Notes: a model not told the origin generated them from the sequence alone. A DNA stretch of 64,000 nucleotides from Lingula anatina (GCA_051362555.1 CM120647.1:6820001-6884000), one strand, 5' to 3'; shown: positions 919-34,231, counted from the stretch's first letter. Numbers and translations: made by a program.

Positions 919-2391
919 CTTTCATTTTCTGAAGAACGAGAGTTTGTTCTTTGGTGATTGCATTCAGTTCTTCCAAGACATTCTTCTGCAGCTGAGCTGT
1001 TTTCATAACGAGGCTCGCCATTTCATCCTGAATTCAATAAATAGAATAAATTGTTCATAAATAAACCGTTTCTTTTTTTAAAATGTTCAGTTATCTGTAC
1101 GGTGTTTGCAACAATCCAAGCAACGAACAATGTCTCTGGCTCTGAGGTTTGTATTACAACTCCCCTCTCCCCCTCCTTACTCAAAAACAAAAATTTGAAC
1201 ATGAATGAAAAATTACCTTTGTTTTGGTCAGCTTTAAATGCAGTTCTTCCACTTCCCTATCTCGTGATGCCAGGGCCAGTGTTAATTCATTCACCTTTCT
1301 CTTTAGATCTGCTTTTTCGCGGGCCTCCAGAATTTCGCTTTTATCTTTCGCAATGAGCACTTCATTTAAGGCAGCAATAGTCTCGTCTTGTTGGGCAATC
1401 CTCTCGCACTTTGCCTTCAAGTCAGTCTTAAGAATGTCTAAAAAGTAAAAAATTACTAGTGAAACATTGGTATTTTCCAAGTTAAACAACATGTTTACAA
1501 AAATCCCCAGCAGACAAATGACATTGATTCACCGTTGAATCAACGTTAATTTTGTTGGATCAACGTTGAATCAACGTAGAACCAATGTCGTTTGCCTGCT
1601 GGGATCGCTGCAGTTTTTGACATTTCTCTTTTTTCTAACGGCAGTAATGAAATGATTAGATTTTAGAAGAAAATTTAACAATGAATGCATACCGAGTTCA
1701 TCTTGCTGCTCTGAAATTTTCTGTAGGGCGGCCGACTTTTCTTCCTGCAGTGTTGCGATTTGCTGTTTTATAAGATTCAGAGTCTGCTCCTTTTCTACGC
1801 ACTTTTCCTCAATCATTGCTATAAAAAAGTCACATTATAAATAGGTTGTTTTACAAATACATAGTATGTTTAAGGTTTATTTATCGAAGAGCCTGTTACA
1901 AAAACTATCAATATTCTTCAGAAAATTGCAAATTATACTTAACTGCATATTGGTCAAAATAATAGATTCTCAGAAAAAAAAAAAAAAAAACATTGGGTTA
2001 TTCAGTATACATTGTATATAATGCTGAAATGGAATCGTTGACTCACCAATGTTGTTTTCTGAATCAGTAATATGGCTTGACATATTTTCCATTTTGTCCT
2101 CAAGATCGGCAACGTGAAGGGTTTTCTTGTTCACGTCCTCAAGTGTTTGCTTCATAGTCAAGAGAACTTGGTTCAGGCTGTTCTTCAAAGCCATCATATC
2201 TTTTCCATAATGATAATATTCAGGATCAACCCTAACGGGGAGATCCGGTAACACTTTTTTCCTAAATAATCCTGAAATATAAAAAAAGACACTATACTGC
2301 AAAACAAACAGTTACTCAGAGCTATAAGAGATATTATATTTTGAAACATTGTTACATAATAGTAACAATGATAATAAGACAACTTACCCAT
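919..2391 (-). CDS. Multi-exon coiled-coil protein of unknown family (3' end not resolved)
   Basis: Exons 2391-2388 (ATGG), 2271-2047, 1818-1693, 1437-1217 and 1027-919 splice in phase with GT-AG: MGLFRKKVLPD...LKNSLNQVLLTMKQTLEDV...AMIEEKCVEKEQTL...DILKTDLKAKCE...DEMASLVMKTAQLQ. Rich in heptad E/K/L/Q. A second ATGG exon lies at 3426-3423. Confidence 0.75.
1506..1603. mobile_element. Short MITE with CCCAGCAG termini (EnSpm/CACTA-like)
   Basis: CCCAGCAGACAAATGACATTG...CAATGTCGTTTGCCTGCTGGG inverted ends, with internal repeats of CGTTGAATCAACG. Confidence 0.7.
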
Positions 2392-4930: not shown

Positions 4931-5386
4931 AGCGTGAACTTCTTGGTGAAGGTCGAGTCGGAGTTGAGCATGTAAGTTTGTATTTATTGCAAGTTTACCC
5001 TTTAGCAATTGGCATTTGCCTAATTAATTTAAATGAAAAACCAGTGATTTTATTTGGTCTTAAAGGAACTGTGATCAGAAGCGATAAATTCTTTTAAATG
5101 AGAAATTTGATGATTTACCGGCCAAATACCAGTAGCAAAACCCTTTTATGACAATTTTGTTTCTTTTTTTTTCTTTTTATTCATGTAAAATGTTTGATAA
5201 ATTTGTCTCACAAGATTACAGTGACATCAAAACATAATTTATAAGTAAGTGCAAATATTATTAGTGAGTGCTGAGTTATATTTTAATACTCTGCAATTCA
5301 ATCTAAAATTTAAACTTGTGACATTCTCTTTTGTCATACTGTACAAATGTTTTCTGAACTTTCTTAGTAGATTAGAAGTTTTTGCC

Positions 5387-5510
5387 ATGGCAAAATATAA
5401 GCTTCTGATCGGAGGCGGTCTGGGAACAGCGCTCGTGGGTGGCATCACATTGTATGGACAGACACTCACAGAGAAACAGGAGAAAAGAACGACTGTATTA
5501 AAACCAGACC

Positions 5511-5564
<54 letters not shown>

Positions 5565-7238
5565 CCAATAAGGGGGTGGGTGGGGTCCATTGGGTCACAT
5601 GTACCCTTAAGCTATGGAGGCATACCCTTTTCTCCCCCACCCACCAAAAATAAATAAATAAATTATAAACAAGTAAATGAAAGAAAAAATAATAAAAGAA
5701 AAAAAAAGGGAATTATAAAACCAAAAGTAAATAAATAAATTTATAAACAAATAAATAAAAGAAAAAATAACAAAAGAAAAGGAATTACAAAAGCAAAATT
5801 TGTCATCATGTAACTTGATTGCAATTGTTTCCCTCCCATGAATGCCAGTCACTTGCATTGTGTCGAAGACAGTGTGGCACTATCCCACAATGCATTTTGA
5901 GTGCTCCACATCCTACTAGTATATTGAAATCTGAGATCTTCTTTACCTTTGATAAAAGATTTCTAGTCTCTTTATTCATAAATCACATTACAGTTAGCCT
6001 TCTATGAAGTGGGAGCAAATGACAAGGAGTATTACATAGAAGAGACGATAACTCCAGTGACAAAGTTTCTGAAATCTACCAGACTGTCCATTAGATCAGC
6101 TTTAGAACCTCTTAAGGTGGGTAGTGTATGTGTGTGTGTGTGTACGTGTGTGTGAGTGTGTGTGTGTGCATTTATGTGGATGCGTGAATGCATATGTGTG
6201 CTTGGGTATGAATGTAATGCATTAGCACGAAAATTCATGCATTAGCACTCCTATTGACGATTTTGATATGTACTGGCTGTGCTAAGACAGCTAGTATTAG
6301 TAGGCTACATATCAGAATCGTCAATAGAAGTGCTAACGCATGAATTTTCGTGTAAGTAATGCATGTGTGTGGTTTTGTGTGTGTATGTGCATGAATGCAT
6401 GCAGTCTTTTATGTTAACACCAGTGACATTTTGTTTGATACGCATTCAGTTTCATGAGTGCAACCAGATGAAATTCTGTCGCAGTAATGAAGTGGAAGCA
6501 ACTCTGGTCTCTGCATAAGAAGCTGCCCAAAGTGTGATTCTTATTTATTTATTTATTTTTGTTATTTATTTGTTAAAAACACCCAATTATGACCCTATAA
6601 TACCTGGAATGTAAAGGCTTATTACCAATCAATTTTTCTAAGACTACCTTAAAGTTTCTTGTTATTTTAGGATAAGGATGGTGTTAGTATAATAGAGAAA
6701 ATCAGTGACAAGTGGGGGATAGCAAGGGCACACACAGAAGGTAGGTTTAAGGCCCCATTCAGATCGAGAAGAGCTGAGTGCTAGCTAGGCCAAAATATGG
6801 CGGACCTACATGAAAGGAAGACCACTTAATCCTGTAATGGTCTCTCTGCCTCTCACACGGCTCCCCATGTGTCGTCCCTCGACCCGTTGAATTGAGCCGA
6901 GATTTTTTAACTTATCCCCAGCAGGGATGTGGGGAAGTGGGTGAGAGGCGGAGAGACCATTACAGGATTACAGGGAATGGTCCCTGTGAGTGTTGAGAAT
7001 TGATTCCATTTTATATTGTAAAAAGCCAGGATCTCTGTATGCTTTAGATTCAGGAACATGGCCCTGACTGTGCTTCAAATGCAGTAAAGTGTATGGTAGA
7101 CATTGTGCATTTATTTATTTACAAGTATGGTTGTTTGTTTACTTTTCTATGTCATTATTGTTTACACTGTTATGGTGCCAAAAATGATAGTAGACCTTAA
7201 AGAACAGATACAGTGGATCCTGAAGGTAATGACAGTAT

Positions 7239-7273
<35 letters not shown>

Positions 7274-7629
7274 TTTCTCTTCGCAAAAAATCATTTCAGA
7301 CCTTATAGAACAGATAAGGTCGGATCCGGAAGTCAAGGCAAATGCTGGCATGATTGCTGTAGCAGGAGTGGTAGGAGCCTCTCTAGGATACAGAGGTATG
7401 ATCTTTTAAAGGCCGTTCCGCAGTTTATTTCCAATCTGTAATGTCAAACTTTAACATCTTCTTCCACTTTTGGTTTAAATCAGTTGGTAAATGGTACAGT
7501 GACATTTTCTCTGTTTCTTTGAAAAGTTGAAAAGTATGTATTTGGAGGGAAACAAGCTTAACGCGGTGGCTTTTTTATGAATATATGTTGTAAATTAGGG
7601 ATATGGCATGAGAGAGAGAGCATGAAACG

Positions 7630-7661
<32 letters not shown>

Positions 7662-9084
7662 GCACGTGTGAGAGAAAGAGAGAGACATTTGCAATCCTCA
7701 GAAGGTTCCCCTGTGGTTTGGATCCCATTATCCTCCCTTTTATTTCCCCTATAGGTGGTGTGCTGAGGAAGGCAGCCTTTGGTACTACAGCTATGGTCGT
7801 GACAGCCTCCTTGCTGTACCCAGAACGGGCCGTCTCTGTGGGGATCGCAGCGGTAGACAGGATCACAGGTGAGATGCTCTGTTCATATCAGGATCAAGTT
7901 AGACTTGAGGGTGACTTACTTCTGCTACGTTCACACCAGGGATTAGTTAGACTCAAACTTTTTTCTGTAACATTCTCATCATGATTGAGTAAGACTTATG
8001 AGAAACTTTTGCAGCTGTATTTAAACCAGGCTTACCTTTAGCTAATCTTAGGTCTGTTGCTTCACATCTGGATAATGTTAGGGCGCATTCCCGTAGATTT
8101 TAGATTGATCTATCCCTGTGGGGAGTCTCACTAGATAACTGTCAGATAATCCGGCTTAAATGTCCGTCCCGCCTACTACAAGCTGTAAGGGGGTAATTAA
8201 CTTTCGTGCCCTCTCAGCTGAGTTATTTAGCGTGAACCCCCAGGGAGTTAGGTCGATCTAGTTGGATCGATCTAATCTCTGGGAATGGGGTCTTAGACTA
8301 TATTTCTGCAGTGTAGCCATGTATATTGAGATAGACTTTATGTTGCGTTCACATCAGGATATGACTTATTAATTGACCAGATGAAAAATTCCATAACACT
8401 GGTGGTAATTAAAGGCATGAGTGGAGTTTCTCTGGTACATTTATCTTGTCCAGTGGAGGGTTCAAGCAAGGCGGATTTCCACTGAAGAGTAGTTGGCCTA
8501 ATTCAGTACTTAACTAGTTCAACAGGTGGTGTGATTGTGTCCAAGGTTGGATGGACCCAGTGTCAATGGAAATGTGCCTTTTGTCTTTTTCAGATCTGTT
8601 GTGAATATTATTGTCATTTAAAAGGGCTTCATTTTAGATGTGTAGTCGCTTGTAACATTTTGGATGTAATTGTCCTATGTGTAGTACAAAAAAAAAAAAA
8701 AATGTCACAGATGCAGAGTATTGTTATAATTATTATTATTATTATTAATTTATTTTTTGAATTCTTCAGTGAACTTTGGAAAAGGTAAAGATTCATTCAC
8801 AGTAGAATAACAGAAATTGAACCATTAATTAATTAATTAATTAATTAATTTTTTTTGTAAGTTGTGTGTAGTAAAATATTTTTACCATTTCAGGAAAAAG
8901 TAATGAAGTTAAGAGATCTGAGGGAGAAATGGACATTTCAGAACAGGTCAGCATAGAGTTGACTCTGGAAGAGACAACAGGCTCTGCAACAGAAACTGAA
9001 ACACCATTTAGCAGTAGTGACCAACTGGACAGCCAAAGTGACCAGCCAGCCAGTAAAAGTGACCAAAAAGAACAGGATTCTTAG
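5387..9084 (+). CDS. APOO: MICOS complex subunit MIC26/MIC27 (apolipoprotein O family)
   Basis: Exons 5387-5512, 5994-6116, 6671-6740, 7300-7395, 7755-7868 and 8894-9084 splice in phase. KPDQLAFYE matches the ApoO KPxxLxxY motif; a Gly-rich TM (AGMIAVAGVVGASLGYRGG) and a second TM ending ASLLYP follow. Confidence 0.8.
6219..6363. mobile_element. Palindromic MITE in a MIC26/27 intron
   Basis: Arms CACGAAAATTCATGCATTAGCACTCCTATTGACGATT and AATCGTCAATAGAAGTGCTAACGCATGAATTTTCGTG. Confidence 0.7.
8081..8292. mobile_element. Harbinger/Tourist-like MITE, family A copy 2
   Basis: TTA flanks on both sides; GGGCGCATTCCC...GGGAATGGGGTC ends. Confidence 0.8.
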
Positions 9085-11419: not shown

Positions 11420-11890
11420 CACGCTAGGTCCCTCTGGTGACAGTATGTCTTGTCCTGTACAGTAGAGACCTCTGGTATCATATCTTGTCCTGTACAGAAG
11501 GGACCCCTGGTGTCACATCTTGTCCTGTATACTAGTAGTAGAGACCTCTGGTGTCACATCTTGTCCTGTATAGTAGGGACCCCTGTTGTCACAATATAAT
11601 GTCCTGTGTGGTAAGGACCCTCAGTGATGTACTAGTAGTATCTTGTCCTGAACACTCTAGCGCCCCTTAGTTTTAAAGTGTCCTGGTCCTGCACTAAAGG
11701 CCCTGTAGTTTCACAATACTGTCCTGTGTAGCATGGAGCCCTGGTGTCACAAAATCCTGTCTTGTTCACTAGGGCCCTCTAGTGTCACAGTCTCCTTGTT
11801 CTGCACCAAGGATCCTCTAGTTTCACAATGTCGTCCTGTCCACTAGCACCATCTGGTGTCATGATGACCTGTCTGGCAGATACTGTCCTA
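11420..11890. repeat. Degenerate ~37-40-bp minisatellite overlapping the TMEM60 stop codon and 3' UTR
   Basis: About 12 units resembling GGGACCCCTGGTGTCACATCTTGTCCTGTAC. Confidence 0.8.
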
Positions 11891-13297
11891 TGACATTTTT
11901 CCCCACATCTACGACTGACCCAATTAGTAATATCCACAGCGGAATCATGACATAAAAAAGTGATAGCGAAGAAACATACTGGAACCTCAGACACAGTATA
12001 ATTTCAAAGATGAGTTTCATGAATAACGAGGTCAGGTACCACGCCCGCCTTTTTATGCTAACGAGTCCTCGGTCGTGGTAGGCGCGGTTTTTACAGTGGC
12101 GCACCATGGTGACAAAGACGTAGATGACGACTCCGATGTCATACAGCCACATGGGAATGAAGATGATGAACCAATTCCAATCCACCTTATAAGATAAATT
12201 TATAGTCTTGTTAATAGAAATTAAATAGCAATGTATGAATGTACTACTAGTAGTAATTCCATGGAGCTGACACCAGTAATTAAGTTAGCCAGATTATTTG
12301 TTAAAGACATTTGCCCCACAATTATGTGCCATAATAAAGCTTCATAAAAATGTCAAATTTATCTGTGACAAGAACGTAACATTTACACTCAGTCATTGTC
12401 TGAATTATTATTAGGTAATCTTAATTGTGATGTTTATTTAAAAATATAAAATTATGAAAACGATATACCATTACATGTACATCTACACTTTACAAAGACT
12501 AAGTATGTGTTCACAATAAAACAATCATATTATCGAACTTAATCCACAGGGACACTCGCTGAATGCAACCAAACTACTACTACTACTACTAATAGTAATA
12601 GATATAACCTAGATAGCATATACAGAACAGTACAGACCTCCTCCCAGCATTGAATACACACAGAAAAGCTGGGCCCAGTTTTATAAAGGACGTTTAGCAC
12701 TAACCAGTGTTTAACTCTAACCAGACCTAAATAGTCTGTTAGTAAACTGACCTTTAAATAATTATTTAATCCAGTTAAACACTGGCCAGTTAACTAATTG
12801 GCTGTTTTCCGTCAGAAGACTGTACATAAAACACATTTTAACCATCTTTTAGTTAATGGGTGTTAGGAGAATTTATCCACTGGTTAGGCTTATCCACTGG
12901 TTAGTGCTAAACGTCCTTTATAAAACTGGGCCCTGGTGATTATATTTGTACGTTGGAAATAAGTGGAGGCGTGTTAGTCTGTTAACCTGATTGCGTTAAG
13001 CGAGAGTCCTGGCGCGACAGATGCAATGCAAATCCATCTTAAAAAGTAAAACTAAGAATTAAAATTATTTATTATCAACTTGAATTTACGACAAGTCCCA
13101 CATTTCACCAGTTGCTATATTAGGTCTGTCACTCTACTTAATTGACTAGAATGCAAATTAATCACCCTAACTAACTGCATATAATATGTTATTCACAATA
13201 ACAAATCCCCTACCTTGTCATCGAGCTTCAAAACAAGTAAAATGAGGAAAATTAACGCCATGAACCACGTAAACAGAGCTCGCTGAATGACAGCCAT
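11859..13297 (-). CDS. TMEM60: Transmembrane protein 60
   Basis: Exons 13297-13214 and 12185-11859 give 136 aa: MAVIQRALFTWFMALIFLILLVLKLDDK|VDWNWFIIFIPMWLYD...FYVMIPLWILL, the TMEM60/TMEM185 family signature. Confidence 0.9.
12672..12932. mobile_element. Harbinger-like MITE in the TMEM60 intron
   Basis: Perfect ~39-bp TIRs GGCCCAGTTTTATAAAGGACGTTTAGCACTAACCAGTG; CTG target duplication. Confidence 0.9.
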
Positions 13298-13545
13298 TAT
13301 TTTTTTCAATGAACAAGACAAGCTTTTTGTTACTGTTCATATCCAAACAACATACCATCCTTTATTTATATCCTAACTCATTTATACCACAATAAAATAA
13401 TTGATCACAAATTTAAAAAATGCAAGAAACAAACTTTTTATTTTTGTTGAATAATAATGTGGATCGTCTTGGGAGAGGTCAAGAGGTCAACCACAGGTAT
13501 AGAACGCTAGAGCTCGAGGAACAAGGAAGCCGGCAGCAGGTAAAG
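13298..13545. promoter_or_regulatory. Probable bidirectional promoter between TMEM60 and the glycosyltransferase
   Basis: TMEM60 ATG at 13297 (-) and a plus-strand donor CAG|GTAAAG near 13539. A perfect AGGTCA-ag-AGGTCA (DR2) lies at 13476-13489. Confidence 0.45.
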
Positions 13546-17172: not shown

Positions 17173-17773
17173 CCATATTCAACTCAATGACCCTTTATTC
17201 ACATTCAAATGTTAATGACCTTTTCAGACTAGAATAAAAAGCCTTTGATCCCGTTAAAGTTAATACAATTAAGAAACACTGGAGCCAGTGTAGGATTCAG
17301 GGCTTAGCTGAAGGGAGTAGGGGCAAAGGCATTAAATAAGCAATCAATCAATAAATCAATCAATCAATCAATAAACCAACCCATGGAACAATCAATCAAT
17401 TGATCAAATAATTGGTCTTTTGTAGGGCATAGGGAAAACTAAATAATTCGGTTTCATCTCTTTTTCATTGTTATTATGTATTAATTCATTGAGGAAGAAT
17501 AAAGAGGGTAATTAAGGCACAAGCTAAGTGTTGCCCACTGTGCACCCCCCCCCCCCACCCCCACACAGGACCTACCTTACTATTAACAATGACATGATGA
17601 AATAATGAAAAAAAGAAATAGTACAGTGTTATTTTGTAATAATGAAAGTAGACTCATATATCAAGTTAGCATCAGATGTTCAACTTCAACAAAAGAAAAG
17701 TTTTGAAAAGTCAGCATCATTACTGAAGGCCAGTTCAATTATAATATTCAAGTTTTGTTTCATTTTAGTCAAT

Positions 17774-20700
17774 ATGGGGAAACACATTATAGTTGTCCAT
17801 GGGTACCTGCTTAGCGGGACAGGATCGAATATCTACTCCTGTAACCTGGCGATGCAGTGGAAGAAACAGGGCCACGCAATTACTGTGTTCTGCCAAGACC
17901 CGCAGGCTGGAACCTACGACTGGGTGGACGAGTTTTTTACATCAGAGGTATGAAGTATTGGGGTAACAGTGGTCTTATTGTGAAAAAATTCGATTTGATC
18001 AATTGGTTTTGCTCAACAGATAAAGTAAGTATAGTTTTTAATTAGTTTATTTATTACTTATTAAATCTATTTAGTAAAATAAATAAATAATTAATTTTTT
18101 TATTATCATTAGTCAAGTGAATGATAGAGATAGAGCACTGATATTTTTTTTATAAAGCCTGCATCGATCATTACCATCATGACTTTAATTTTTATTAATA
18201 ATATTATCACATTTTTTTTCATCGTCGCAGGCGTCATGGCCGAAAGATCCACCAGCCCCAGGCAAAGTGCGAGTCCTGGTCCCCGATATAGCCGGCCTGT
18301 TACCAGTGTACGTTTATGATGAGTACGAGGGCTACACAGTGAAGACCATTCCCAATTGTACAGACGAAGAGATTGAGCGACATATCAGCATGACATCCAA
18401 AGCAATACGCAAAGCTGTGGATATGTGGGGATGCGATAAGGTAGGACAACTTGGTGGTGGTTTTCACATGTGCATGTGTTTGTGTGAGCATCATTTTACT
18501 TGATGACCTTAGATTTATAATGAATATTTAGAATTCAAAAGATAATTATAACTTTTTAATATAGTTGATTTCTTAAAATTAAAACTGAAAAAAAATGAAA
18601 GCAGCTTTAATTGAAGGTAAAAATAGGAAATAAAAGCTTAAACATGGCTTTATAGGTCATCATAAATTTTTTCAGTTGTTTTGAATGCGTATTCTATACC
18701 TTGGAACTATTACAGGAAGAAAGAGTGAAAATTTCCAAGAAGCTTTAATTTTTGCCATGTAGACACCCATAATGCTCATTATCTCCACCAAGGAATTGTG
18801 CTTTGACCTCAGTTTGTGTTTTTTATTTTTTTTGTCACTGGCCTAATAAAAAAAAAAGTTATGGATAGACTTTAGAATTTGATGAAATTTTCCAGATAGA
18901 ACACGAAATAAGGTATAATGCATAAAACTCATTTGTTTTTGGTGAAGATCTGTGAATTAGTTCATGGTCAAAAATTAGTGAATTATTTGTCTAAGCAAAG
19001 ACCTACACTCTCTGAATACCTCTGTACTAGTAATTGTCATTGCCTCACACTTTTGTTACCAAACTATCATCATCTTCTTTTAAGGTGCTGACCAACCATG
19101 CTCTGTTGTCCCCCGTCAATGCAAAGAGAGCTTTAGAAGGAACGGGCATTCCTTTTGACATTAAGATCCACGGCAGTGCCCTTATTTTTGTCGTCGATCC
19201 ACACCCACAGTATAAGAAATATGCCATTGAAGCCATCAAGAAGTGTAACAGAATCATCGCAGGAACACGCCATACTGTGTCCCAGGTAAGTGGGTTTTTA
19301 GAATTTCCTATAACTTCCTCCCAGAGAAATATTGTACACTCCCCCGTCTTTGTGATTCTGATCTGCCCCCCCCCAGCAGTGCTGCCCCTGCCCTTATCAT
19401 CTGTCAAACAGGAATTACTAAATATTGAGCAAACAAACAAAAAAGTTGCTGCTTGTGCCCCCCCCTCCCCCCCACCCCCCACATACACGCTTTTTTGTGC
19501 TCTGCCTCCAGCTTCCCTTAAAATTTAATTTTTTCCTTATATATATAGAGAGAGCCATGCCAACTGTAAGTAGGTAATTTTTTTTCTTTAATAATGATAA
19601 TTATTTCTCCTGGAACTCCTGATGAGGGGTAAAGTGCTGTGCCTCATTGGTAAATAATATGTCAGTTCTATTTAGAAATGATTACCTTTTTTCGAAATCA
19701 GTTTAAAAAAGACAGTGAAAAAGCATATCTGGTATTGCATCTTTCTTTCCCAATTCCTGTATCTCTGCCAACCCCCTCTCTTTTCCCAAACTGTTCTGTT
19801 CTCCTAAAAAATGTGTCCAACCTTGCAGGTCATGGGATCTTTTTCCCAGGAAAAAAATGACCTTGACCTTGAGAAGAAGCTGGTCATTGTGCCACCTGGA
19901 ATGGATCCAACCGTTTTCTCCCTGTGTAAAAGCATCGACAGCAATATGGCAGCATTTCTAGAAGAAATAGGAAAACATATTGCAAAAGAAGGGAACGGGC
20001 GTCGCGCAACAGACATCCAATTTCCAAAAGTCTCCAACTCTGCAGAAAACATCCATCAAAAGCTTGTCGACCTGGGAAAGTCCTATAACCAGAGAGTAGT
20101 TGATGCAGATCTTCCAACTCGGCTGCCAAAATTTGCGGCTGATGAGCCTGTGATAACATATTTTGGAAAGTTTCTCAATACAAAAGGAGTAGGGGAGATC
20201 CTCCTCTCTTTTCCAGCTATAGTGAAAGAGGTGCCTAAAGCTCGACTGCTGTTGATTGGTTTTGGAACTTTCAGGGAACATCTGGAGGCCATGATCCATG
20301 GTCTGACTACAGGTAACACTACTTATTTATTGTTTTACTTATTATGTTTGCTTGTTGTTTGTATAAATTTATTTATCACATTTGTATATATGCAAGCCTT
20401 CATGCCCTACTAGGCTGCAGCTATGATCCAATATATATCCTAAAGTAACATTGCAAAAGATAATAGAAAAATAATTGAAAATAAAGATTCGAATAAATAC
20501 GACGTAACGTATGTATGATATTATGTAAATTCCAGGTGACATCACTTTGTTCAAGGCTGCAGCTCACAGTACAGATGAAAATGGAAAAACATTTCTGGAT
20601 TCTAATATAGATATTGACAAATACTTCAGAAAACTTGGTAGGTACTTAGACTTAAGGTGTCACCATGTTGTGGTCTCACTAGCATCATGTTCTTCTACAA

Positions 20701-23700
20701 CTATACTTGTCTCAATTGCAATTTACATTTTGTTATATAGCAAAGTTTGCAAATACTCTAAAAAAAACTGGTAAGATATGTAGAATCATAATATGTGCTA
20801 GATATACTAAATGATAAGTTCAACAAATCGGCTTTAAAAAAATTGAAAATATTCAAAAATAATGTTGCCTGTTGCATTTGAGAGATATATTTAATTATTT
20901 TGTGTATTATATCTTATTTATATATTTTTTCTATAATGTATTTAACTATATTTTATATTGCCTATAGTGTTGAACTTTGTTAGCCCAATCTGTAGCAGCA
21001 AAAAAGCCAATGTTGTGCCATGTATTTTACTTACTGGGCTTGTTCAAACTTATTGAGTAATTACCATGTAATTATAATGTTTTTTTTTTTACTGTAATCT
21101 ATAATATCAGAGCCATCTGAGGCCAGTCGTATCACCGTGACCGGATGCCTGAACCACAGTGAACTGGGTTTGATCCTTCCGCTGGCATCTATTGGCGTTG
21201 TTGCCTCCAAGGCCAGTGAAGCATTTGGAATGGTGGCAGTGGAAGCCATGTCTGCTGGAGTCCTGCCTCTCTGTGTGTACCACTCAGGTAAGGTAGGGAC
21301 TGTAGACAATAGGTAGCGCTAGTTGTTTGTTTACAAAAATTGCCCAAAAAAGTGTCTGTAGAGTTTCAGATTTCTACTGTATATAGATTGCATGCCACTT
21401 TGCAGCCACTGCTTAAGGAATTGACTTATTTCTTGAAGTGATAGTTATTCTAAAATATTTCAGTTTTAGAGAACAATTGTATATTGAGCAGAAATTATAA
21501 ATGGCTCTTGTAATATAGAAAGGTTATTTAGCATAATCACAAAATTTTCTGAATGTTAGCCTACTGCCAACCGAGTCAGACACCTTCATTAGACTGATGT
21601 TAGATGTTGTCACTTACTGATCACAGCTAGGTGATACAGCCATAAGATAGAGGGGGAGAACAATTACAACCTTTGGTAAAAACCTTACTACTACTAGTAC
21701 ATGATTCAGCTACCAAGCCTTTGAACATTTTTGCTTAATGTACATTTATCTGCTTATAAGCCTGTGTTCCATCCATTGTTGTTTTTGAAATCATTTCAGG
21801 GTTAATTGACGTACTTGACCAGACCAAGGAGAAGGAACCCGATCTAGAAGCTCTTATGCATCTGGAGGTAGAAAGTGGAGGGGACTTCGGTGTAGCAGCA
21901 GGAGCAAGTTTTATGGAGGTAAAAAATCTCTGATGGCTTTATGGCAAGTCAGTTTGTATTGGTTTCTAGAAGACAGACAGAATGCTTTTGAAGGACTCTT
22001 TTCTTTTTTTTTCATATTTTTTTTTTAATTTCTCCATAATATATATTACACAGTATACTATATTGATGTATAATATGGTTTTAAAAGGTATATATTTGTA
22101 ATCAAAAACTTTATACATAATTCATCACTTAGTCTTAATTCTCAAAAAATAAATAAATAAATAAAACACTTTCAGCATGTCCCTTTTTCTTCAAAATTCT
22201 GTAAGTCACCTCTGCATTTGTATCAGGCACGTTGCCAGCAGTATGAAAAGGAGGGTTCTTTGTCTGAAAAAGTGGACCTTTGTATCATGAAAGATTTTAT
22301 TTATAATGGAGTAGAAACTAGTCTAAGAACAAATTTTGATTCAGAATGGTCCTTTTCCCAGTCAAAAGGATTGTTATTCCACTCACACCCAACCCGCAGC
22401 TACCATACACTAGGTTACGTACATGTATATGCCTACACATCCATCTACATATTTATTTGTGCCATTATTTATTTATTTATTAAATAACAATAACTAATCA
22501 ATATAGTAAAATGAAGAATTATCAAAAATGCAATTATGCAAAATTTCTTATTTAAGGACGTCCTCTCATATTAGCTTTTTTTGCGATCTGCGCAGATTTC
22601 GCGCATGAGTAGTTTTTTGCAATAGCGGCTAATGATAAACATATAACATGCAATAAAATACGTAATTCACCCTTTTAAGAAATCAGTATGAAATCTTTGA
22701 TGTTATTTTGGTGGAAGCGCTACGAATATGTCAACAATGCGTTGCGTATCTGTGAACGCTTGGTCTTTTACGACGTAAAGTACCCACTTGCGACTTTGTT
22801 TACGCCGCAATGTAAGAAATTACGTGAAGACGGGATGGAAAAGAGCGTTTTAGTACGGCTTGTATAGCAGTGACAAGATCTTATCTCACGGAAAGTAATC
22901 ACAATGGTTTGCATTTTGACCACAAAGTATATTGTGGTGATTTGTCACATGGTTACGATGTGTGCAACAAGACATTGTCTTCTTCAGCATTGCTTTCCGA
23001 TCACCCAGGGCCAAGTTACCGTGATTTGTATGCTGAAAACAATTCTCTTCTTTCACAATAAGTTAAAATAATTAGACTCATGGCGTTTTGTTGTTGATTT
23101 AAGTATGTTATTGAACAATATGACCTGCAAACAGTGCGATTTTCAGCTCTCCAGGAAAGATGCAACAGGTGTGCACCCGCCTGGCGTGTTGCGACGTCAT
23201 TCTTGTAATGGTTTTGTTAAAGTGCAAATGGACAAAACCATAAAACACACAACAGAGGACCAAGGGTTTTTATGCAGATACATGTAATACTTTTTTGATG
23301 CTAGGAAAATAAACAGTATATTTTAGAAGATAAAGTGTACTTTATTCCAACTTTATCCTAATTTACCCAATCATAAACAAGAGATCTAGCTGATCGCCTT
23401 TAGTTTGTAAATTTATTACATCACAGAAATTATTCAGCCCATAATGCATTAGAAGATAGTCTTGAGTTACAAAACTTAGTTAATTTTTGCAATGATGAAA
23501 GTGAAGAAAATCCTTTTTTTCTGATTTTTTTATTTTATCCCAGTCAACTGACTCAATCCTGTGTGAAACCTTTACCAAATTCTGTAGAAAACCTTGTTTG
23601 TAAAAAAATAATTTCTCCATGTGTAGGAAAAAAAAATAAAGCTGTCAGGGTTAACATATCAGAATTAGTAATTGCTCTTCAAAGAGAAAGTCTAGATGGT

Positions 23701-23734
23701 CTTTATTTTCTTCTCAGCGAAATCAATCCAAACA

Positions 23735-23771
<37 letters not shown>

Positions 23772-25030
23772 GAGTAACAAAATGCATAAAAGTAGTAAAA
23801 AATTGTATGATTTTTTTTATTTTAAAATTAATATGCATATTTATATGCTATTGATATGTATTTGATTGCATGTTGTAAACATAATATGAAACAGAAATAA
23901 ACTGATAATCAAAGATGTCTGTAGATGAATATTTTTGTCACCATCTTCCATATATAGAGAAGAAATATGACTAACTTACCATAGTAAGAAATTGATACAT
24001 TGTTAATGTACAAAGGAAACAATTTATCCAGTTTTCTCACCATAAAGTGCATGTTTTAGAAATAAAGATAAAAAGGAATAAGAAAATAAGTCACATGAGA
24101 TTGATATAATATGCTTTTGGTCAATCTGCCTAGCCTATGAAAAATCCAATATGGCGGCATTCCATAAGGCATACTGAAATCCAACTGATACTTTCAACAT
24201 TTGATTATCTATTTATTATGAATGGGATATGCAAATTTTATGAAATTTGGTTAACTGATGCAGAGAAATTTAAATATAATTTTCATGGAAACATAATAAG
24301 TGTATGAGTTAAAAACCTAATGATACAAATATATTTATCTTAATTTGCTAGTAAATTTCCATTGATTCCTATGTAAATTTGATAAAAAATCGATGCTCAA
24401 GCAGCCCTGGCTCAAAAACAAGCCTGGTGTGGTACGTATTTTTTTGTAAATTTCTTTGAGGTCTACCAAGATCCATAACATATCCACATAAAATTAAAAT
24501 CGCTAGGGCAGAAATTTTTATTTTTGCATTTTTCAGCAAAATTAAGGGCATTTTGGCAAAATTCCCATATAACGCAATGTAATAAACGTAGCGTTTTTCG
24601 GGACGCCACCTATCGAAAACGAGCGTGGGGACCCCCAATTTTTTTTTCATATTTTTTACTCATATGGTAAGAAGAATTTGTCTTACAATTTTAATCAAAA
24701 TCGCTAGGGCAGAAATATGAAATCTGAAATATGAGAGGGCGTCCTTAAATGCTAATCTTAAAAAATGAACCAGAACCTCTGAAGGTGATAATCTTGCTCA
24801 ACATATTAAATAATTTAGATATAAACTCTTCACGCCCCCTTTTACTTTGTTCTCATTTATTTGTTCATTTATTTCAGGCATTCAAGCCAAAGGTTATGAA
24901 AGCCCTTGCTCACTTGTATCCAGCCACAGATGAGGGGAAGAAAAAATTGGCCATCTCAGAGAAAATTAGGGCAGTTGCTGAGGCCATTTGGTCTTGGGCC
25001 GGTATTTGTCAGCGCCTGGTGGAGCTGTGA
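17774..25030 (+). CDS. GT4 (GT-B fold) glycosyltransferase of bacterial type, 539 aa, 8 coding exons
   Basis: Exons 17774-17947, 18231-18440, 19085-19285, 19829-20312, 20536-20637, 21111-21287, 21800-21918 and 24878-25030 (1620 nt) splice in phase with no stop. Motifs: HGYLLSGTGSNIY, GHAITVFC, KIHGS, VPPGMD, YFGKFLNTKGV, EAFGMVAVEAMSAGVLP (EX7E) and WSWAGICQRL. Confidence 0.92.
22556..24744. mobile_element. Kolobok-type non-autonomous DNA transposon in the last glycosyltransferase intron
   Basis: 17-bp TIRs GGACG(T/C)CCTCTCATATT with 1 mismatch, GG..CC termini and TTAA on both sides; no long ORF. Confidence 0.8.
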
Positions 25031-26399
25031 GAACCTGAAACTGATGAAAAAATAACATTCCACAAGAATGGTATCGCAACTCTGTTGATTTTCTTAAAAA
25101 GGAGGTGATGTTGACAAAATTTGAAGTTGTTGATTGTGTCCATCTTTAGTATTTACTTAATAATATAAGATTAATGATTTTTTTCCAAAAGTAATTTGGT
25201 AGTATTTCTTTAAAGAGTTAGTCCCATTGCTTTGAATTGAAAATAAATATATTTTTGTGATTATTTGAAAATGCTAAATCTTGTGAGAAAGTAAAGTATT
25301 AGAAAAATTAAGGTATTTGAACATTTTGAACAAGTACAGCTTGAAGGCTGTCTTTGTGATATTTTATCAATATCTCTCTTGAATACTTATCCAAACTATA
25401 AAGATAGGCTTTCATATTGTAATGAGGCTGACCCAAGTAAAAAAAATGTGCAAATCCCATTCAAAAGTAATGAGAAAGTTACTTTTATTTATTATCCATG
25501 CTATTAAGTTGCCTATCTCTCAAAACATACTGGTACAGCTGTATTGCTAATATGTAATCCTTGTTAGCCTCTTTAGTATGGAAAGTATTGCAAATAACTG
25601 ATACTATAATATGTAGATTAGTAATTTTTGCAATTTTTCTGCAATTTATAAAGGTGCTGCTTCTTACTTCCGTACATTTGATAAAGTATATTTCTGTAAT
25701 AATATTTTAGATCATATTTATATATTTCTGTGATGATAAAATTTCATCACACATGGTTCCCAGATTTCAGTTGGTAATATTCATAGATTATTATAGTAAA
25801 TGGTGACAAAATGTTTACCACGAGCAACAAGTTGCAACGTCCATGCAAACTAGATAAAAGTGTCAGATTGACATTGAAATGTATCTTTAATATTTTTTTT
25901 CTCAAAATAATCATATAAATATTTTTTGGAATAATCTACTCAATTGCTAATGTTTGAAACTATGGAGAATGTTCTCATATGTTAACTTAAGGTCCCAGTA
26001 TTTACATGGATATAAGGTTCTAGTCCCTGTGTTATTTAGGTATATAATATTATTTTGTATGTAATCTATAGTGCAGTCCTATCCAGAGAGCAATATTCTA
26101 GTCTACTTATATTACTTCAAAAATTAATCAAACATAAAACATGCTGCTACACACATTTCATTTCCTGCATAATAGTTTGAAATCGTTCAAACAGCTGATT
26201 TTTTTTCCAAGTTCATGTATGTATGATTCTAGCACTGCACACATGTCGATCTATAAAAACGTCATAGTCAAGTCATGGTATCTTATGAATGTGGACCAGT
26301 ATTGCATTGTAGTTTATTGCCTTTTTTTTTTTTTTTTCCGAGGCAGGGAATATTTTTGTCCATTAACATACTATATGGATAACTTTCGGCTCAACTCGT

Positions 26400-28185: not shown

Positions 28186-29760
28186 CTAGACATAATACCG
28201 CGACCGTTTGGCTGGTGGGACAGTATAGAGAACTGTCGTATTGTTCCTTGCGTTGGAATACGGTTGTTCTTCAGTTTGCCTCATAGTGAGATACCCACTC
28301 GGGGAGTGGGGTTGGGCTCCATCCTCTCCATCTAGACACTCTGGCGGTGGCGGAATCTCCAGGGTAATAGGACACTCTGCTGATCGCCTCGTTCCACGTG
28401 AGGTTCCAGGTGTCGGTTGGTCAACGTCCATGGGTTCTTCATATTGATGTACCGTTTCCGCCAGCATTCTCAGTTGCACTTGTTCTGGTGGTTCTGGTCG
28501 GTTGTATCGGTGGGCACAAAAACAAAGTCGTTTGCGGTGACGACGCAAACAGACACAAAGATCAATTAGAATTATCATGCATGCTATGACAATCCCCACA
28601 ACGTACGTAACAGAAGTTCCGCTGGTCGGTGCAGACCAAAAGTTCAGTTCCTGCTCACTCAGTGGCGCAAGGTGAAGGTGCGCAACTGGCTCAAGATTTT
28701 GAAAATTTGGATTTCTCAATCTTTTTGCGACAATTCCTGATGGTATCAATTTGTGCACATTGAGGGATGAAATGTCGTTTATCAGTTGAGATCTGAGTGA
28801 GACTCGACCTGCTTTCTCTGTTATACCAGGAAGGGTGAAGTTACTTCCTGTTATCGTACATTTTGCTGGGACTGTCACAAGATAGGTTCCTGCCTTGAGC
28901 AGGTATGAGACCGGTCGGGAACGGTGGCATCGCTTCGTCACCTCTCTCCCCAGGTTACCAATACGTATTCGCCCAAGACTATTTCTGTGGCAGTGGAAAT
29001 GCCACTCCGAGAGGTCAGCTCCACCTTACATGCACTCTGCTGCGCATGGTTGTGCGAGATGATGGCTCTGGAACATAATTCTGTACCTTGGTTGTAGACG
29101 GCACCGGTCCTACATACCAAAGGTTTCCAGCCAATGCAGCCAGACGGGTAAAACACATTTCCGGTTCGCTCTACTATACCGATATTGGCTTCACCATGTA
29201 CAACTCGGCTAGCGAACCCTGTGTTTTTGTATGGCTGCTTGAAGGACCGGATATCGTATCTGGTCCGCTTCCTCCTGGCTGATCAACGGTAGTTTGACCT
29301 TGTAGATTAAGGTGCTCCCTCCCCACACTGGGGAGACCGTAATGTGTTCATAATACCACTGTAGCGGGTCTATCAACACGTCTGTTGCATTGTCCGCTGC
29401 CAGTGCAAGTGTTTCTAACAGTTGAGATGGTGGCAGGAGTTCTTCTGTCAGGCATCTCAACTCCAGACTAGCCTTTTGATGATTGAACTTTTCAAAAAGT
29501 AGTCTGTAGTCCCTTACAAGCTGTTCGAAAGAGTAGACCGCTCGATCCAGCTGGTAGGTAGCCCACACCTTATTCAAACGAACCCTGGTGTCGTAAGCAA
29601 ATCGGTTTAAGTCTCTAAAGCTGTTGGTGACGACCGCATTCAGATAGTTGGGAGATGTCATTGAGACGTCTTCGTCCGATGTTAATGGTGTCCACAGTGT
29701 GTTTGAGTACCGAGATGAGCTTGTTAATTCGATGTACGAGTACCTGGTTATTTCTCCCAC
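28186..29760 (-). pseudogene. env-like envelope/fusion glycoprotein, frameshifted
   Basis: Third ORF after the integrase, broken into pieces (29209-29760, 28938-29156, 28186-28941). It has a heptad region (QLDRAVYSFEQLVRDY), LTEELLPPSQL and PLQWYYE motifs, a Cys-rich segment, and a TM helix VTYVVGIVIACMIILIDLCVCL followed by RRHRKR. Confidence 0.75.
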
Positions 29761-32700
29761 TCTAGTTCAGATGTGTCTCCCTCTGTGTCTGCGGCAGGAG
29801 TGCCGCTACTGGGCTCGGGTACGGTGTTATGTAGTTGCCCTTCCTTTTGATCTTCTTGCGGTTCTCTTTGATCCTGGATGACAAATGGGATCAGTGGAGG
29901 GCGCGCCGGTGGTGGTCTTCTGGGTCTGCGTTTTACGTCATCCCAAGATATATTGGGGTCTACTAAACACAATTTATTTCTGTTTACTGTCAAAACTTTC
30001 CCAGTCTGCTGATGACGAATGGTATAGACCTTGCCTCGCCTATTGATTACCTCATATTGTGGATCCCAACTGCTAGTGAAGGGAAGGCGCTCTTGTGCCT
30101 TTAATATTACCGTGTCGCCGATCTGAAGTTGCTCCGCATTCCCTCGGGCATTCAGTCGCGCCCGGTTGTACTTTCGGGAGTTTTCTAGGTTGATTTTAGC
30201 TGTCTGTAGGGCTTCAGTCATATCCTGTAGTCGACCATTCAGCAGGTGTGTTGCTGGTGAAGGCGTAAGCAACTTGGTGAGTGGTAATCGGGCACGGCAT
30301 CCATACATCAGAAAATATGGAGTATAGCCAGTTACTGTACTCACAGAGTTGCGGTAGGCCATTAATGCGCTACCCAACTTCTCTTCCCATCTGTGTGGTT
30401 CGTTGTTGAGCAATCGTGTCAGGATTTCTTTAATGGTACGGTTTACTCGTTCAGTTTTACCATTGGCTTCTGGCGAGTAGCTGGTCGTTCGTCTATGTTC
30501 CACACCTACCTTTGACAGGAAATGTTCAAAAGCTTTAGAGCAAAATTCCTTTCCTCGATCGGTAATAATTACTTCCGTGAATCCAAATCGTGGGAAGAAA
30601 TCCTTGGTGAGCGCTGACTCCACTGCTTCGGAGGTCTTGTTGGGAATTGGGTAACTCTCTACCCATCCTGAGAAGTGATCAATCAGATTGAGACAGTACC
30701 TATTTCCTTTTGACGATTCTACAAATGGGCCAATTAGGTCCATCCCAATTATGTGATTGATGGCTGCTGGCATAGGCATTTCTCCATACTCCGCACGTTG
30801 TTGTCGGGGAATATGCACCTTGCATGTTGCACATCGATCTAATTGATCTTGGATGTCAGCACGCATTCCGGGCCATACGTAACTCTGCCGTACTCTGTCG
30901 AGAGTTTTACCAGTGGCACAGTGTCCCACCTCTTCATGACAACATTTAATCACGTTTTCACGGTATGGTGATGGTAACAATATCCGTGGGTAGATGGCGC
31001 TGGTGCTAGTTGGTCTCTTAATGGAGTATAGATGGCCGCTCAGCACTTCATATTCCGAATCCTCATTTAGAGCTAACTTAAATTCCTCTCTGAACTCTGC
31101 CGTACTCTGTCGAGAGTTTTACCAGTGGCACAGTGTCCCACCTCTTCATGACAACGTTTAATCACGTTTTCACGGTATGGCGATGGTAACAATATCCGTG
31201 GGTAGATGGCGCTGGTGCTAGTTGGTCTCTTAATGGAGTATAGATGGCCGCTCAGCACTTCATATTCCGAATCCTCATTTAGAGCTAACTTAAATTCCTC
31301 TCTGAATTCGTCTTCTTGTTGTATCAAAAGTTCTTTTGGATCAATGTCGTCTGCTTCCAGTGGTACATGTCTCAAGGCATATTCATCGGGGATGCATTCT
31401 GGGTCAATCCAATGGGAGGTGTCGAAAGTGGCTATTGTTTCTGAAGGTGGATTGGGTAATCTGCTCATCATGTCTGCTCTGATGTTCTTTTTTTCCTTTA
31501 ATGTATTCGACCTTTGCACCGAATTCTTCCATGAGAATAGCCCACTTTTGTACTTTGGTGTTCCTCATTTCTTTGGTGAATAAAGATTTCAGTGGTTTGT
31601 GGTCTGTGTACACGGTCAGCGGGCAACCATATAGATATGCACATGGCTTTGAGATGCTGTATACCATGGCATACGCTTCCTTCTCAATGATCGGCCATCT
31701 TAGTTGTGGTCCTGACAGGCTATGCGATATGTACTGGACGACTCTCTCCACACCACTTTCGTCATCTTGGACAAGAACTCCTCCTATCGCGTAGTCTGAT
31801 GCATCCACATACAACTTATATGGCTCATTCGGTCGGGGGTAGGCCATGACATGATTGGAGCATAACAGTTCTTTTAGTCTTTGGAAACTCGTTTGTTGTT
31901 CTTCTCCCCAGTGAAATGTTTGCCTCTTTTTCATTAGTCGATACAGGGGTTCGGCAACCTTGGCAAAGTCGGGTATGGTTCTGGCATAATAATTGCACAT
32001 ACCGATGAATGACTGCATATCTTTGACTGTGCGTGGGGGTGGTAATTTGTTTATGGCTTCCAATTTTTCTGGGTCACTACGCACTCCGTTCTCGGATACG
32101 ACATATCCCTGTAGCTTCACTTCAGTCTTCATGAATTCGCATTTCGAAGGTTTCATTCTCAGGCCTGCTTTCTTCAATCGCTCGAATACTTCTGTCAGAT
32201 GGTCAGCATGTTGTTCTTGACCATTGGAAAAGACAATTATGTCATCCAAGTACACTAGTACCGAACGTCCAATTAGGTCGTGTAGAACATAGTCCATCGT
32301 GCGTTGGAAATATTCAGGAAATGATGTAAGACCAAAAGGAACACGAGTAAACTCATATAATCCTTTATGGCATACAAAAGCAGTCTTAGGAATGTCTTCT
32401 TCTGCTATGGGGCACTGCCAGTATCCGGCTCGTAAATCAATCGTGCTAAAGTGTGTTGACCCACTTATCAGGTCCAGGATGTCCTGAATTAATGGTATTG
32501 GGTAGGGATCTTTAGTCACCACTTTGTTCAATTTTCTATAGTCCACACAAAATCGTGTAGTTCCATCGCGTTTAGGAACTAAAGTTACAGGTGAGCTCCA
32601 AGGAGAACAACTAGGCCTTATTATCCCTAGCCTTAGCATTTCTTCTATTTCTGCTTCGACGATCTTCCGCTTAGCTAAAGGCACTCGGTAGGGTCGTTGT

Positions 32701-33236
32701 CTCATGGGTTTTGCATCTCCTGAGTCTATTTTCATTCGTTGTAATGTTAATTTTCCGTGTGGCTCTCCCTCTATGCTGAACACCTCATCATATTTTCTCA
32801 GCACTTTATCAACGCAGTCCACACCAGTCAAGGGGGCCTTGCACGCTACAGCAGATACAGAGTTAGTTTGCTTCTTACCTTTGTAAAAGGTCAAAGGCCA
32901 TCTCTTTCCACACCATAACAGGGCTCCTTGCTGATAATTAATGACTGCATTATTTCTTAGTAGCGTGTCATTCCCAATTATCATGTCATAGTCCACTTGG
33001 TCAGCTACTAAAACGTCTACTACTGTAGCATTGTCTATCTTGATCTGTGTTTTCCCTATCACCGGTACTGTGTGTCTTGTCACTCCATATGTGACACTTA
33101 AAGGCTTGATTAATCTAGGTCTATTCATAGTTCTGCATAAAGTGTTAAATAGTTTTCTGTGCAAGAGGCTAGTACTGGCCCCCGTATCAATTAGTGCATG
33201 ACATTTAATTCCTGATATAGTAATGTTAATGGCCAC
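29748..33236 (-). pseudogene. Gypsy pol (protease, RT, RNase H, integrase), split by frameshifts
   Basis: LIDTGA protease; RFCVDYRKLN and YLDD RT; VDASDYAIGG RNase H; HHCC and DDE (MDLIGP, ITDRG, KTERVN) integrase. There is a frameshift near 31490 and a 212-bp duplication. Confidence 0.95.
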
Positions 33237-33265
33237 ACGAGGGTCAGGTCCACCTCTTGCACTTG

Positions 33266-34231
33266 CTAGTTTTTTTTCGAATTATGCTGCTGTTTTTCCT
33301 GGGCCTTCACTTGATAACACTCACGGCGAAGGTGGCCAATCTTTCCACAGTGAAAGCACACAGGTTTTCCATCGTCGGTCCACTTCACTGTTCCATTTCT
33401 CTGTGTTCTTGCGGGCGTTTGTTTGTTCTGTCGAAACCTGGCTGGTTGAGTCGGGGCCGGGCTACATTCTAATTTTGCTATTCTCGTAGTCATTCTTTTT
33501 AATTGCTGTTCTACTTTCTCGAGCATCCCTTGCTGCTCCTTTTGCGTTGCGACTTCCATCGGCTCTTGGTATCTCGTTTCCATGCCCATTACCGTTTTGT
33601 ACAGTTGGGCACCTACCTCAGCATTATCAATGTAGGCGAGGGCCTCATCCAGGGTCCTGGGCAGGGCGTTTTCGATCAGTTTTTTTCTTAGATCTGCCCG
33701 GGCCAGTCCTTTAGCATAACAAATTACAAGCTGTCTCTTTGCATCCACGGAGCAAGGGGGAGGGTATGCTTTTCTTGCTAGGTCTCTGAATTTGCGGTTA
33801 TAAGCGGCACAGTTCTCGTAGGCTGATTGCTTCATTTGTTCTATTTCTGCTCTTAAACATGCCGCCTCATCAGGTGAGGGGAATGACCTACGTATATGGT
33901 TCCTCAAGATATCCCAAGGATCATTCTGTTGTTGTAGGCAGTAGTCAATTTCTGCTGCCAGGGCACCTCTTGTGGTCTTTAACGCTAGTCGTGTTGGCAA
34001 ATTAAGGATCGTGTCCCTACCTCTAGTAATGGCCCGCTCCATTTGGTCGAGCCAATCTCTGGTCTCAGAGGGTACTGATCCATCGCAGACGGAACACAGG
34101 TCTGCTAAATCTTTCAGGGCAGTTCTTTCAACCTCTTCTGCCCATCTACGTGCCTGTCGTCCACTCTCGACTTGCTGTTGTTCCCCGAGGCCCCTGAGGT
34201 TTTCAATAAGAGCTTGAAATTGCTCGACTCA
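33266..34231 (-). CDS. Gypsy gag
   Basis: CCHC knuckle CFHCGKIGHLRREC and EPMEV motif. The frame stays open upstream of 34042 to about 34225, and the start appears frameshifted. It ends in AAAAAAC-TAG, a -1 slippery site. Confidence 0.85.

Follow-up and report, generated by a model that had tools for sequence, protein, structure and literature searches.

A spliced GT4 glycosyltransferase gene of Lingula anatina belongs to an uncharacterised family of apparent bacterial ancestry

Among the GT4 glycosyltransferases, BshA is the best structural match of the protein described here. Its His, Thr, Lys and EX7E positions are each reported as required for activity, and the Gly of its E-x-F-G motif is associated with gluco-configured donors (PMC10361700); the internal substitution (SNi) mechanism has also been described (PMC12022483). 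Lateral acquisition of glycosyltransferases has also been reported. The GT4-conflict domains (PF20706) represent a GT4 lineage that marine invertebrates are reported to have obtained from bacteria (Kaur et al. 2021, PMC8195603), and two transfer candidates with glycosyltransferase domains, one of them figured as of fungal origin, are given for Salpingoeca (PMC7971027). We analyzed a window of 64,000 nucleotides from Lingula anatina (GCA_051362555.1 CM120647.1:6820001-6884000), in which positions 17,774 to 25,030 hold a gene encoding a GT4 protein. The original prediction, made from the DNA of the window, had proposed this gene to be an intact bacteria-to-animal transfer. The reading that we prefer, and consider moderately probable, is that the gene encodes a predicted cytosolic, retaining GT4 enzyme, which transfers a sugar to a small acceptor and whose ancestor passed once from a bacterium to an early eukaryote.

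The open reading frame (ORF) is spliced from eight coding exons (1620 nt, 539 amino acids and a stop codon, no internal stops; Table 1). All seven coding-region introns are GT-AG, with phases 0, 0, 0, 1, 1, 1 and 0, and the product is identical, without gaps, at 523 of 539 residues (97%) to the uncharacterised L. anatina protein LOC106181476 (P0001). Poly(A) RNA reads from four runs of the same species label, which were 90–99% alike, skipped all seven introns in three runs, the remaining run (X4) being thinly covered. In run X1, 28, 49, 52 and 32 reads skipped introns 1, 2, 6 and 7, respectively, and read strandedness was consistent with RNA from the plus strand. Intron 5 appeared as a 475-nt skip with two differing letters between, which fits the 473-nt intron plus allele differences. 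The predicted intact ORF of 539 residues over eight exons is thus borne out by splicing, the lack of internal stops and the match to P0001, and the proposed check by RNA sequencing across the junctions turned out positive. Seven is the correct intron number for the coding region. Since the loose ends of X1 reads match a stretch before a GT (20 reads extend 5′ of 17767, and their first 22 letters are an exact match to 13513-13534, just upstream of the GT at 13540), the gene likely has a ninth, non-coding exon at its 5′ end, which would be joined to the AG acceptor at 17767-17768, and with it an eighth intron. The exon variants listed numbered 28, of which 23 were silent, as compared with an expected silent share of 23%, and 5 were non-synonymous (ratio of non-synonymous to silent polymorphism, pN/pS, 0.065; p = 6e-11); another 429 variant rows lay beyond those listed. 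The Lingula gene is expressed and under purifying selection, and with its integration and splicing it has the properties of a domesticated transfer. Bacterial contamination or a decaying pseudogene is effectively refuted by the seven spliced introns, the low pN/pS, the animal-type genes and transposons flanking the gene, and the 97% identical protein in an independent record; we found no point in support of either.

Phylogenetic analyses placed all eukaryotic copies on a single branch. In the main tree (42 rows after dropping near-duplicate cluster members and fragments: 23 from the eukaryote clade, 11 close and 8 outgroup rows), the 23 eukaryote-clade rows grouped with 100/100 support and with a support of 100 in the Shimodaira-Hasegawa-like approximate likelihood ratio test under a mixture model, and trees of 154 and 67 rows concurred. 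Prokaryote genomes supplied 8 of the 11 close rows and 5 of the 8 outgroup rows. Within the eukaryote clade, lineage A comprised Lingula, Owenia and hydrozoans (100/100), lineage B comprised sponges and anthozoans (100/97) and had probable protists as its sister group (95/98), and the remaining rows fell into a third group. The internal branching of lineage B separated sponges from anthozoans and anemones from corals. Most family rows were assigned to the eukaryote or the bacterial clade by tree position; an 11-residue insertion occurred in 66 of 66 rows of the former and in 0 of 61 rows of the latter, and the span between two anchors measured 53–55 residues in all 66 eukaryote-clade rows and 42–43 residues in all 61 bacterial-clade rows. 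The outgroup lacks this insertion as well. Because it is absent from both the bacterial clade and the outgroup, the insertion appears derived, which would indicate a direction from prokaryote to eukaryote. Approximately unbiased (AU) tests, run under LG+G4 with groups chosen after the trees had been seen, rejected two roots inside the eukaryotes (p = 0.026 and 0.003). Considering the prokaryotic close and outgroup rows, the rejected eukaryote-internal roots and the derived insertion, the eukaryotic copies represent a derived branch of a prokaryotic family, and a bacterial ancestry of the gene is well supported.

The original prediction was therefore right about bacterial-type ancestry, as judged by tree and insertion, but the transfer is not specific to brachiopods and was not shown to have led directly from bacteria to animals. 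It is also older and broader than proposed: all eukaryotic copies, including the non-animal-looking ones, share one origin, and animals have two deep lineages. A direct, lineage-specific transfer from bacteria to brachiopods or spiralians could explain why Lingula and Owenia are the sole bilaterians named among the matches listed. This is very improbable, as the nearest relatives of the Lingula protein are animal proteins with 57–67% identity, a clade of lineage A and the close bacteria was rejected (p = 0.019), and Lingula carries the eukaryote-wide insertion.

With 163 clusters at E ≤ 1e-100, the core family is a small one, and a 50%-identity library contained five near-full-length representatives with >40% identity, followed by a drop to 37% or less. 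Animals named among the matches listed were Lingula, Owenia (2), Hydractinia (2), Clytia, Exaiptasia, Actinostola, Porites, Acropora, Oculina, Amphimedon and Halichondria. Two further clusters contain EukProt records and are probably protists, judging from their tree position, a fusion to a PH domain and a gene-dense contig. The eukaryotes named among these matches were confined to four animal phyla and the two EukProt records, most rows being without names; no fungus, plant, amoebozoan, vertebrate, arthropod or mollusc was named in the best 120 of 1831 matches, the best 120 of 163, or 30 clusters opened. The nearest prokaryotic members of the family share 45–50% identity with the Lingula protein and occur in scattered bacteria. 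An alignment-based contig search, which covered 17 of 64 parts of the collection, yielded named prokaryotes at 43–48% identity (Desulfobacterales, Pseudodesulfovibrio, Calditrichota, Gemmatimonadota, Melioribacteraceae and Acidobacteriota), and distant members with 27–36% identity were found in Actinomycetota and Thorarchaeota. As predicted, the protein is a GT4 of an uncharacterised family whose named close prokaryotic members are bacteria. Searches of genome contigs with a single protein, of plasmids at 1e-20, and of viral contigs gave no match. No core member was detected in 400 Asgard genomes; 10 of the 400 encode the distant subfamily only, and an Asgard route of entry was rejected on these grounds.

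Vertical inheritance from the last eukaryotic common ancestor, with loss nearly everywhere, would agree with several deep eukaryote lineages in a single clade that is perhaps sister to the close bacteria and not within them. However, the small core family, the absence of the major eukaryotic groups listed above from the named matches, the 45–50% identity to bacteria and the lack of core members in Asgard genomes make this scenario quite unlikely. The original prediction was to be abandoned if spliced transcripts were lacking or if orthologues formed a vertically inherited clade across opisthokonts; transcripts are spliced, and no such clade emerged in the searches made.

Among the probable protist members (P0151, P0154, P0005 and P0016), we observed chains with two near-identical GT4 copies or with a C-terminal PH domain. 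In Hydractinia, sponges and an anthozoan-like group, the clusters P0003/P0134, P0018/P0024, P0045 and P0037 point to tandem duplication, as their members have adjacent locus numbers or come from contigs of equal length.

Intron positions were compared through the points at which predicted proteins depart from the family alignment. Hydrozoan-clade fragments diverge from the protein following residue 58 in P0136 and P0275, the latter with a 34-residue read-through, and following Q195 in P0138. Each of them continues with Val, which is what a GT donor in phase 0 would give. These positions match Lingula introns 1 and 3 (the latter with Hydractinia), with a rough chance expectation of 6e-5 to 6e-3. 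Other hydrozoan breaks, near residues 108 and 240, are not common to Lingula, P0138 reads through the position of Lingula intron 2, and P0274 reads through 195. In anemones the break falls near 363 instead, and each of six coral-clade loci consists of a single ORF. Lineage A likely bore introns before hydrozoans and brachiopods split.

Under the preferred reading of one bacterial transfer, this event would have predated the cnidarian-bilaterian split and been followed by duplication and wide loss. After the transfer, the 11-residue loop would have been gained and the gene would have split into deep lineages, and introns 1 and 3 would already have been present in lineage A before hydrozoans and brachiopods diverged. 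Sponges and anthozoans would have retained lineage B, and both lineages were likely lost in most other animals. Alternatively, the gene may have entered a protist once and then moved by serial transfers between eukaryotes, reaching animals twice or passing between hydrozoans and spiralians. We regard this as unlikely, albeit worth serious consideration. In its favor, hydrozoan and anthozoan copies did not form one clade (cnidarian monophyly was rejected, p = 0.0002), lineage B is sister to non-animal-looking sequences, and just two bilaterian genera were named among the matches listed. The same tree is explained by an ancient duplication, however, lineage B tracks host relationships, and lineage A has deep branches (57–67% identity) and apparently common introns, a clade of Lingula and Owenia not being rejected (p = 0.19).

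The structure model of P0001 (predicted local distance difference test score, pLDDT, 95) has a two-Rossmann GT-B fold. Its top structural matches were GT-B glycosyltransferases, namely BshA (Z 29.5–30.9) followed by PimB', GlgM and sucrose-phosphate-synthase-like (SPS-like) enzymes (Z 27–28), with 12–19% sequence identity to the nearest folds. P0001 passes the PF00534 model (49.4 bits, gathering score 26.4) and its Pfam matches are generic GT4 families only; no NCBIfam model reached its cut-off for any of seven family proteins scanned. The GT4 signature is present, with the EX7E motif (E427, E435), the diphosphate-binding Lys (K314) and the N-domain His (H157). These four residues and S159 show no variation in any of the 127 aligned rows, and in a profile comparison with three BshA proteins the five fall on the His, Thr, Lys and EX7E positions. 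Because these catalytic positions of BshA are conserved, the protein is likely an active retaining transferase, with glucosyl or N-acetylglucosaminyl (GlcNAc) transfer predicted. We infer that it uses a gluco-configured nucleotide-sugar donor and a small soluble acceptor. The donor would be bound by the C-terminal domain through K314, E427 and E435, with G430 as in gluco-specific enzymes. Upon domain closure H157 may stabilize a front-face, SNi-like transfer, so that the sugar would move from the nucleotide to the acceptor in one step and yield an alpha-glycoside. Inserts at about 60–110, 225–295 and 360–395 likely shape a family-specific acceptor site. The highest mean hydropathy over 19 residues (1.79, at residue 428) maps, in the model, to the folded C-terminal domain, and the model begins directly with a beta strand. 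Hydropathy and model agree with the earlier claim that a signal peptide and transmembrane segment are lacking, no dedicated predictor having been run, and a cytosolic location is predicted from them. The protein had also been set apart from the standard animal GT4 members; ALG2, ALG11, PIGA, GTDC1 and GLT1D1 were absent by name among the matches listed, with no tree including these proteins.

Core bacterial members stand alone, outside sugar-polymer or defence clusters. A stand-alone gene would suit a one-step enzyme with common substrates and could explain how a single gene was useful after transfer. An osmolyte or small glycoside, as proposed earlier, would be a plausible product. Action on a lipid, protein or polysaccharide, or a role as an anti-invader effector like the GT4 proteins of PMC8195603, is rather unlikely: the GT4 family spans all these acceptors, several animals have duplicated copies, some non-animal members carry a PH domain and three of them exceed the PF20706 cut-off, but P0001 stays below that cut-off, PADLOC found none among four proteins, and the animal proteins are single-domain and conserved, with bacterial counterparts that lie outside polymer and defence loci.

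Gene neighbourhoods were scanned for 134 of 166 ORFs around L001-L019 and 132 of 174 ORFs around L076-L105. MttB-like genes occurred near three loci; recurrence of neighbours was confined to close relatives and was not taken as functional evidence. Four distant actinobacterial members (L010, L012, L013 and L017) have a PIG-L deacetylase nearby, two Thorarchaeota members (L016 and L018) adjoin a radical SAM gene, and a nucleotidyltransferase and a STAS gene are located near L096 and L105. The distant subfamilies with these neighbours possibly belong to undescribed small-molecule pathways.

Several observations weigh against a single early transfer of a small-acceptor enzyme. The scenario demands many losses, its non-animal members are without species names, and the apparently shared introns are seen in three predicted protein fragments and not in DNA. 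LG+G4 rejected monophyly of the animal copies (p = 0.0015), which the mixture model did not (p = 0.136). The maximum-likelihood tree, proposed earlier as a check, did recover one eukaryote clade in a prokaryotic family, but between nesting inside the close bacteria and a sister position it did not decide, as a tree in which the close bacteria form a clade of their own beside the eukaryotes was not rejected (p = 0.28, AU). Core members are so rare in the bacterial groups that harbour them (8/301, 4/86, 1/251, 1/51, 1/251 and 1/301 genomes, seed genome included) that no donor can be named. On the side of function, no neighbour of the core bacterial members was conserved in the scanned neighbourhoods, so that context does not inform on the acceptor, and the match to BshA says little about the substrate because BshA is reported as the top structural match of unrelated GT4s, too (PMC12022483).

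Table 1 Features of the GT4 gene and its last intron; positions are counted from the first letter of the window.
Feature	Position	Strand	Remarks
Likely non-coding first exon, 3′ part	13513..13539	+	GT donor at 13540; exon start unmapped
Coding exon 1	17774..17947	+	aa 1-58; Gly-rich N-terminal loop
Coding exon 2	18231..18440	+	aa 59-128; family-specific beta-hairpin insert
Coding exon 3	19085..19285	+	aa 129-195; N132-H133, H157-G158-S159
Coding exon 4	19829..20312	+	aa 196-356; helical insert, K314, invariant R344-E345
Coding exon 5	20536..20637	+	aa 357-390
Coding exon 6	21111..21287	+	aa 391-449; EX7E motif E427/E435
Coding exon 7	21800..21918	+	aa 450-489; 11-residue insertion marking the eukaryote clade
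Kolobok-like inverted-repeat element, 2.2 kb, within intron 7	22550..24750	.	TTAA target duplication, GG...CC ends
PML_C-like fragment in intron-7 element	23407-23862		
Coding exon 8	24878..25030	+	aa 490-539 and stop

The 2.2-kb transposon that had been noted in the last intron of the intact gene is confirmed. It has 23-nt inverted arms (96% complementary) with TTAA at both ends, and RNA reads show that it is removed by splicing. Its termini and TTAA agree with the definition of Kolobok elements as having a TTAA duplication with 5′-RR and YY-3′ ends (PMC9587614). Scanning of four short ORFs in the element revealed no transposase, the only match being to PML_C (E 3e-6). Many reads cover window positions 22246-22281 and 25507-25550 and continue into unrelated sequence, probably representing fragments of abundant repeats.

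Upstream of the GT4 gene, on the opposite strand, lies an exon with PF10269 (TMEM185/TMEM60-like; 11859-12284, minus strand). A possible minus-strand donor near 13214 (region about 13210-13540) suggests a head-to-head arrangement of this gene with the first GT4 exon. The window further contains a Gypsy-type retroelement (28186-34228, minus strand) with gag, protease/reverse transcriptase/RNase H and integrase in separate ORFs, and additional ORFs beyond the integrase without Pfam match; positions 30881-31306 of the element form a tandem duplication of 212 nt. The minus strand also carries exons of a gene for an FkbM-type methyltransferase (PF05050; 51289-53035) and a DDE_Tnp_4 transposase fragment (57356-57748), as well as exon-like ORFs of two more genes (5249-7984, plus strand; 1181-2311, minus strand) with no informative Pfam match.

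The literature searched, with subscription journals outside its coverage, contained no description of this GT4 subfamily, and six gene identifiers retrieved 0 papers. The main text of a compendium of metazoan horizontal gene transfer (PMC13342648) mentions neither Lingula nor Cnidaria. This conserved subfamily is uncharacterised, lacks a curated model and, at family level, a solved structure, and occurs in scattered bacteria as well as in sponges, corals and further animals that branched early. Its history resembles that of a domesticated gene transfer of great age, cleanly marked by the insertion common to the eukaryotic members. Tentatively, and with more doubt than confidence, we propose that a one-step enzyme of bacterial origin was passed down to the first animals. 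It would make a cytosolic glycoside that has not been described, perhaps a BshA-like thiol precursor, a redox protectant or an osmolyte, and would have been kept by sponges, hydrozoans, corals, anemones and a few slowly evolving spiralians but lost by most bilaterians. If true, this would fill a gap in the metabolism of early animals and corals.

Compared with described systems, BshA is the best structural match of P0001 (Z about 30, 350–365 residues aligned). Both are soluble stand-alone enzymes, and their His-Gly-Ser/Thr, Lys and E-x-F-G...E positions align. In contrast, identity is 14–19%, the Lingula protein has about 160 extra residues, and P0001 scores 29.3 bits with TIGR03999 (cut-off 273.7). 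The Arg of the BshA NFR motif aligns to Leu311, with Leu in 81–86% of family rows, and three of five genomes with a core member also encode a separate, true BshA. SPS-like GT4s (Tll1590, 6kih; Leishmania 8vrf, 8uag and 9dcm) and MshA (3c4q) were the top Foldseek matches; 6kih was the sole PDB sequence match at E ≤ 0.01, and the Leishmania chains gave the longest alignments (about 400 residues). Yet identity of P0001 to the SPS-like enzymes is 14–18%, a likeness of fold only, and the MshA model TIGR03449 did not match P0001, its best score for a relative being 28 bits as compared with 462.5. TIGR04157 was the best NCBIfam match for all seven proteins scanned, but at 46–57 bits with a cut-off of 400. 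The GT4-conflict proteins are multi-domain and massively expanded as reported in PMC8195603, whereas the Lingula protein is single-domain and conserved and reaches 19.9 bits with PF20706, under the cut-off of 26. Four supplements of PMC4784904, on bacterial genes in the sponge Amphimedon, list no GT4 Pfam identifier or glycosyltransferase term, and the main text and three supplements of PMC4878875, on corals, name no GT4, where an unnamed entry could hide one. This kind of event is already known, and the present instance was not found in the literature searched. In kind, the locus resembles these bacterial genes of Amphimedon and corals, which are likewise old, domesticated, enzyme-coding transfers.

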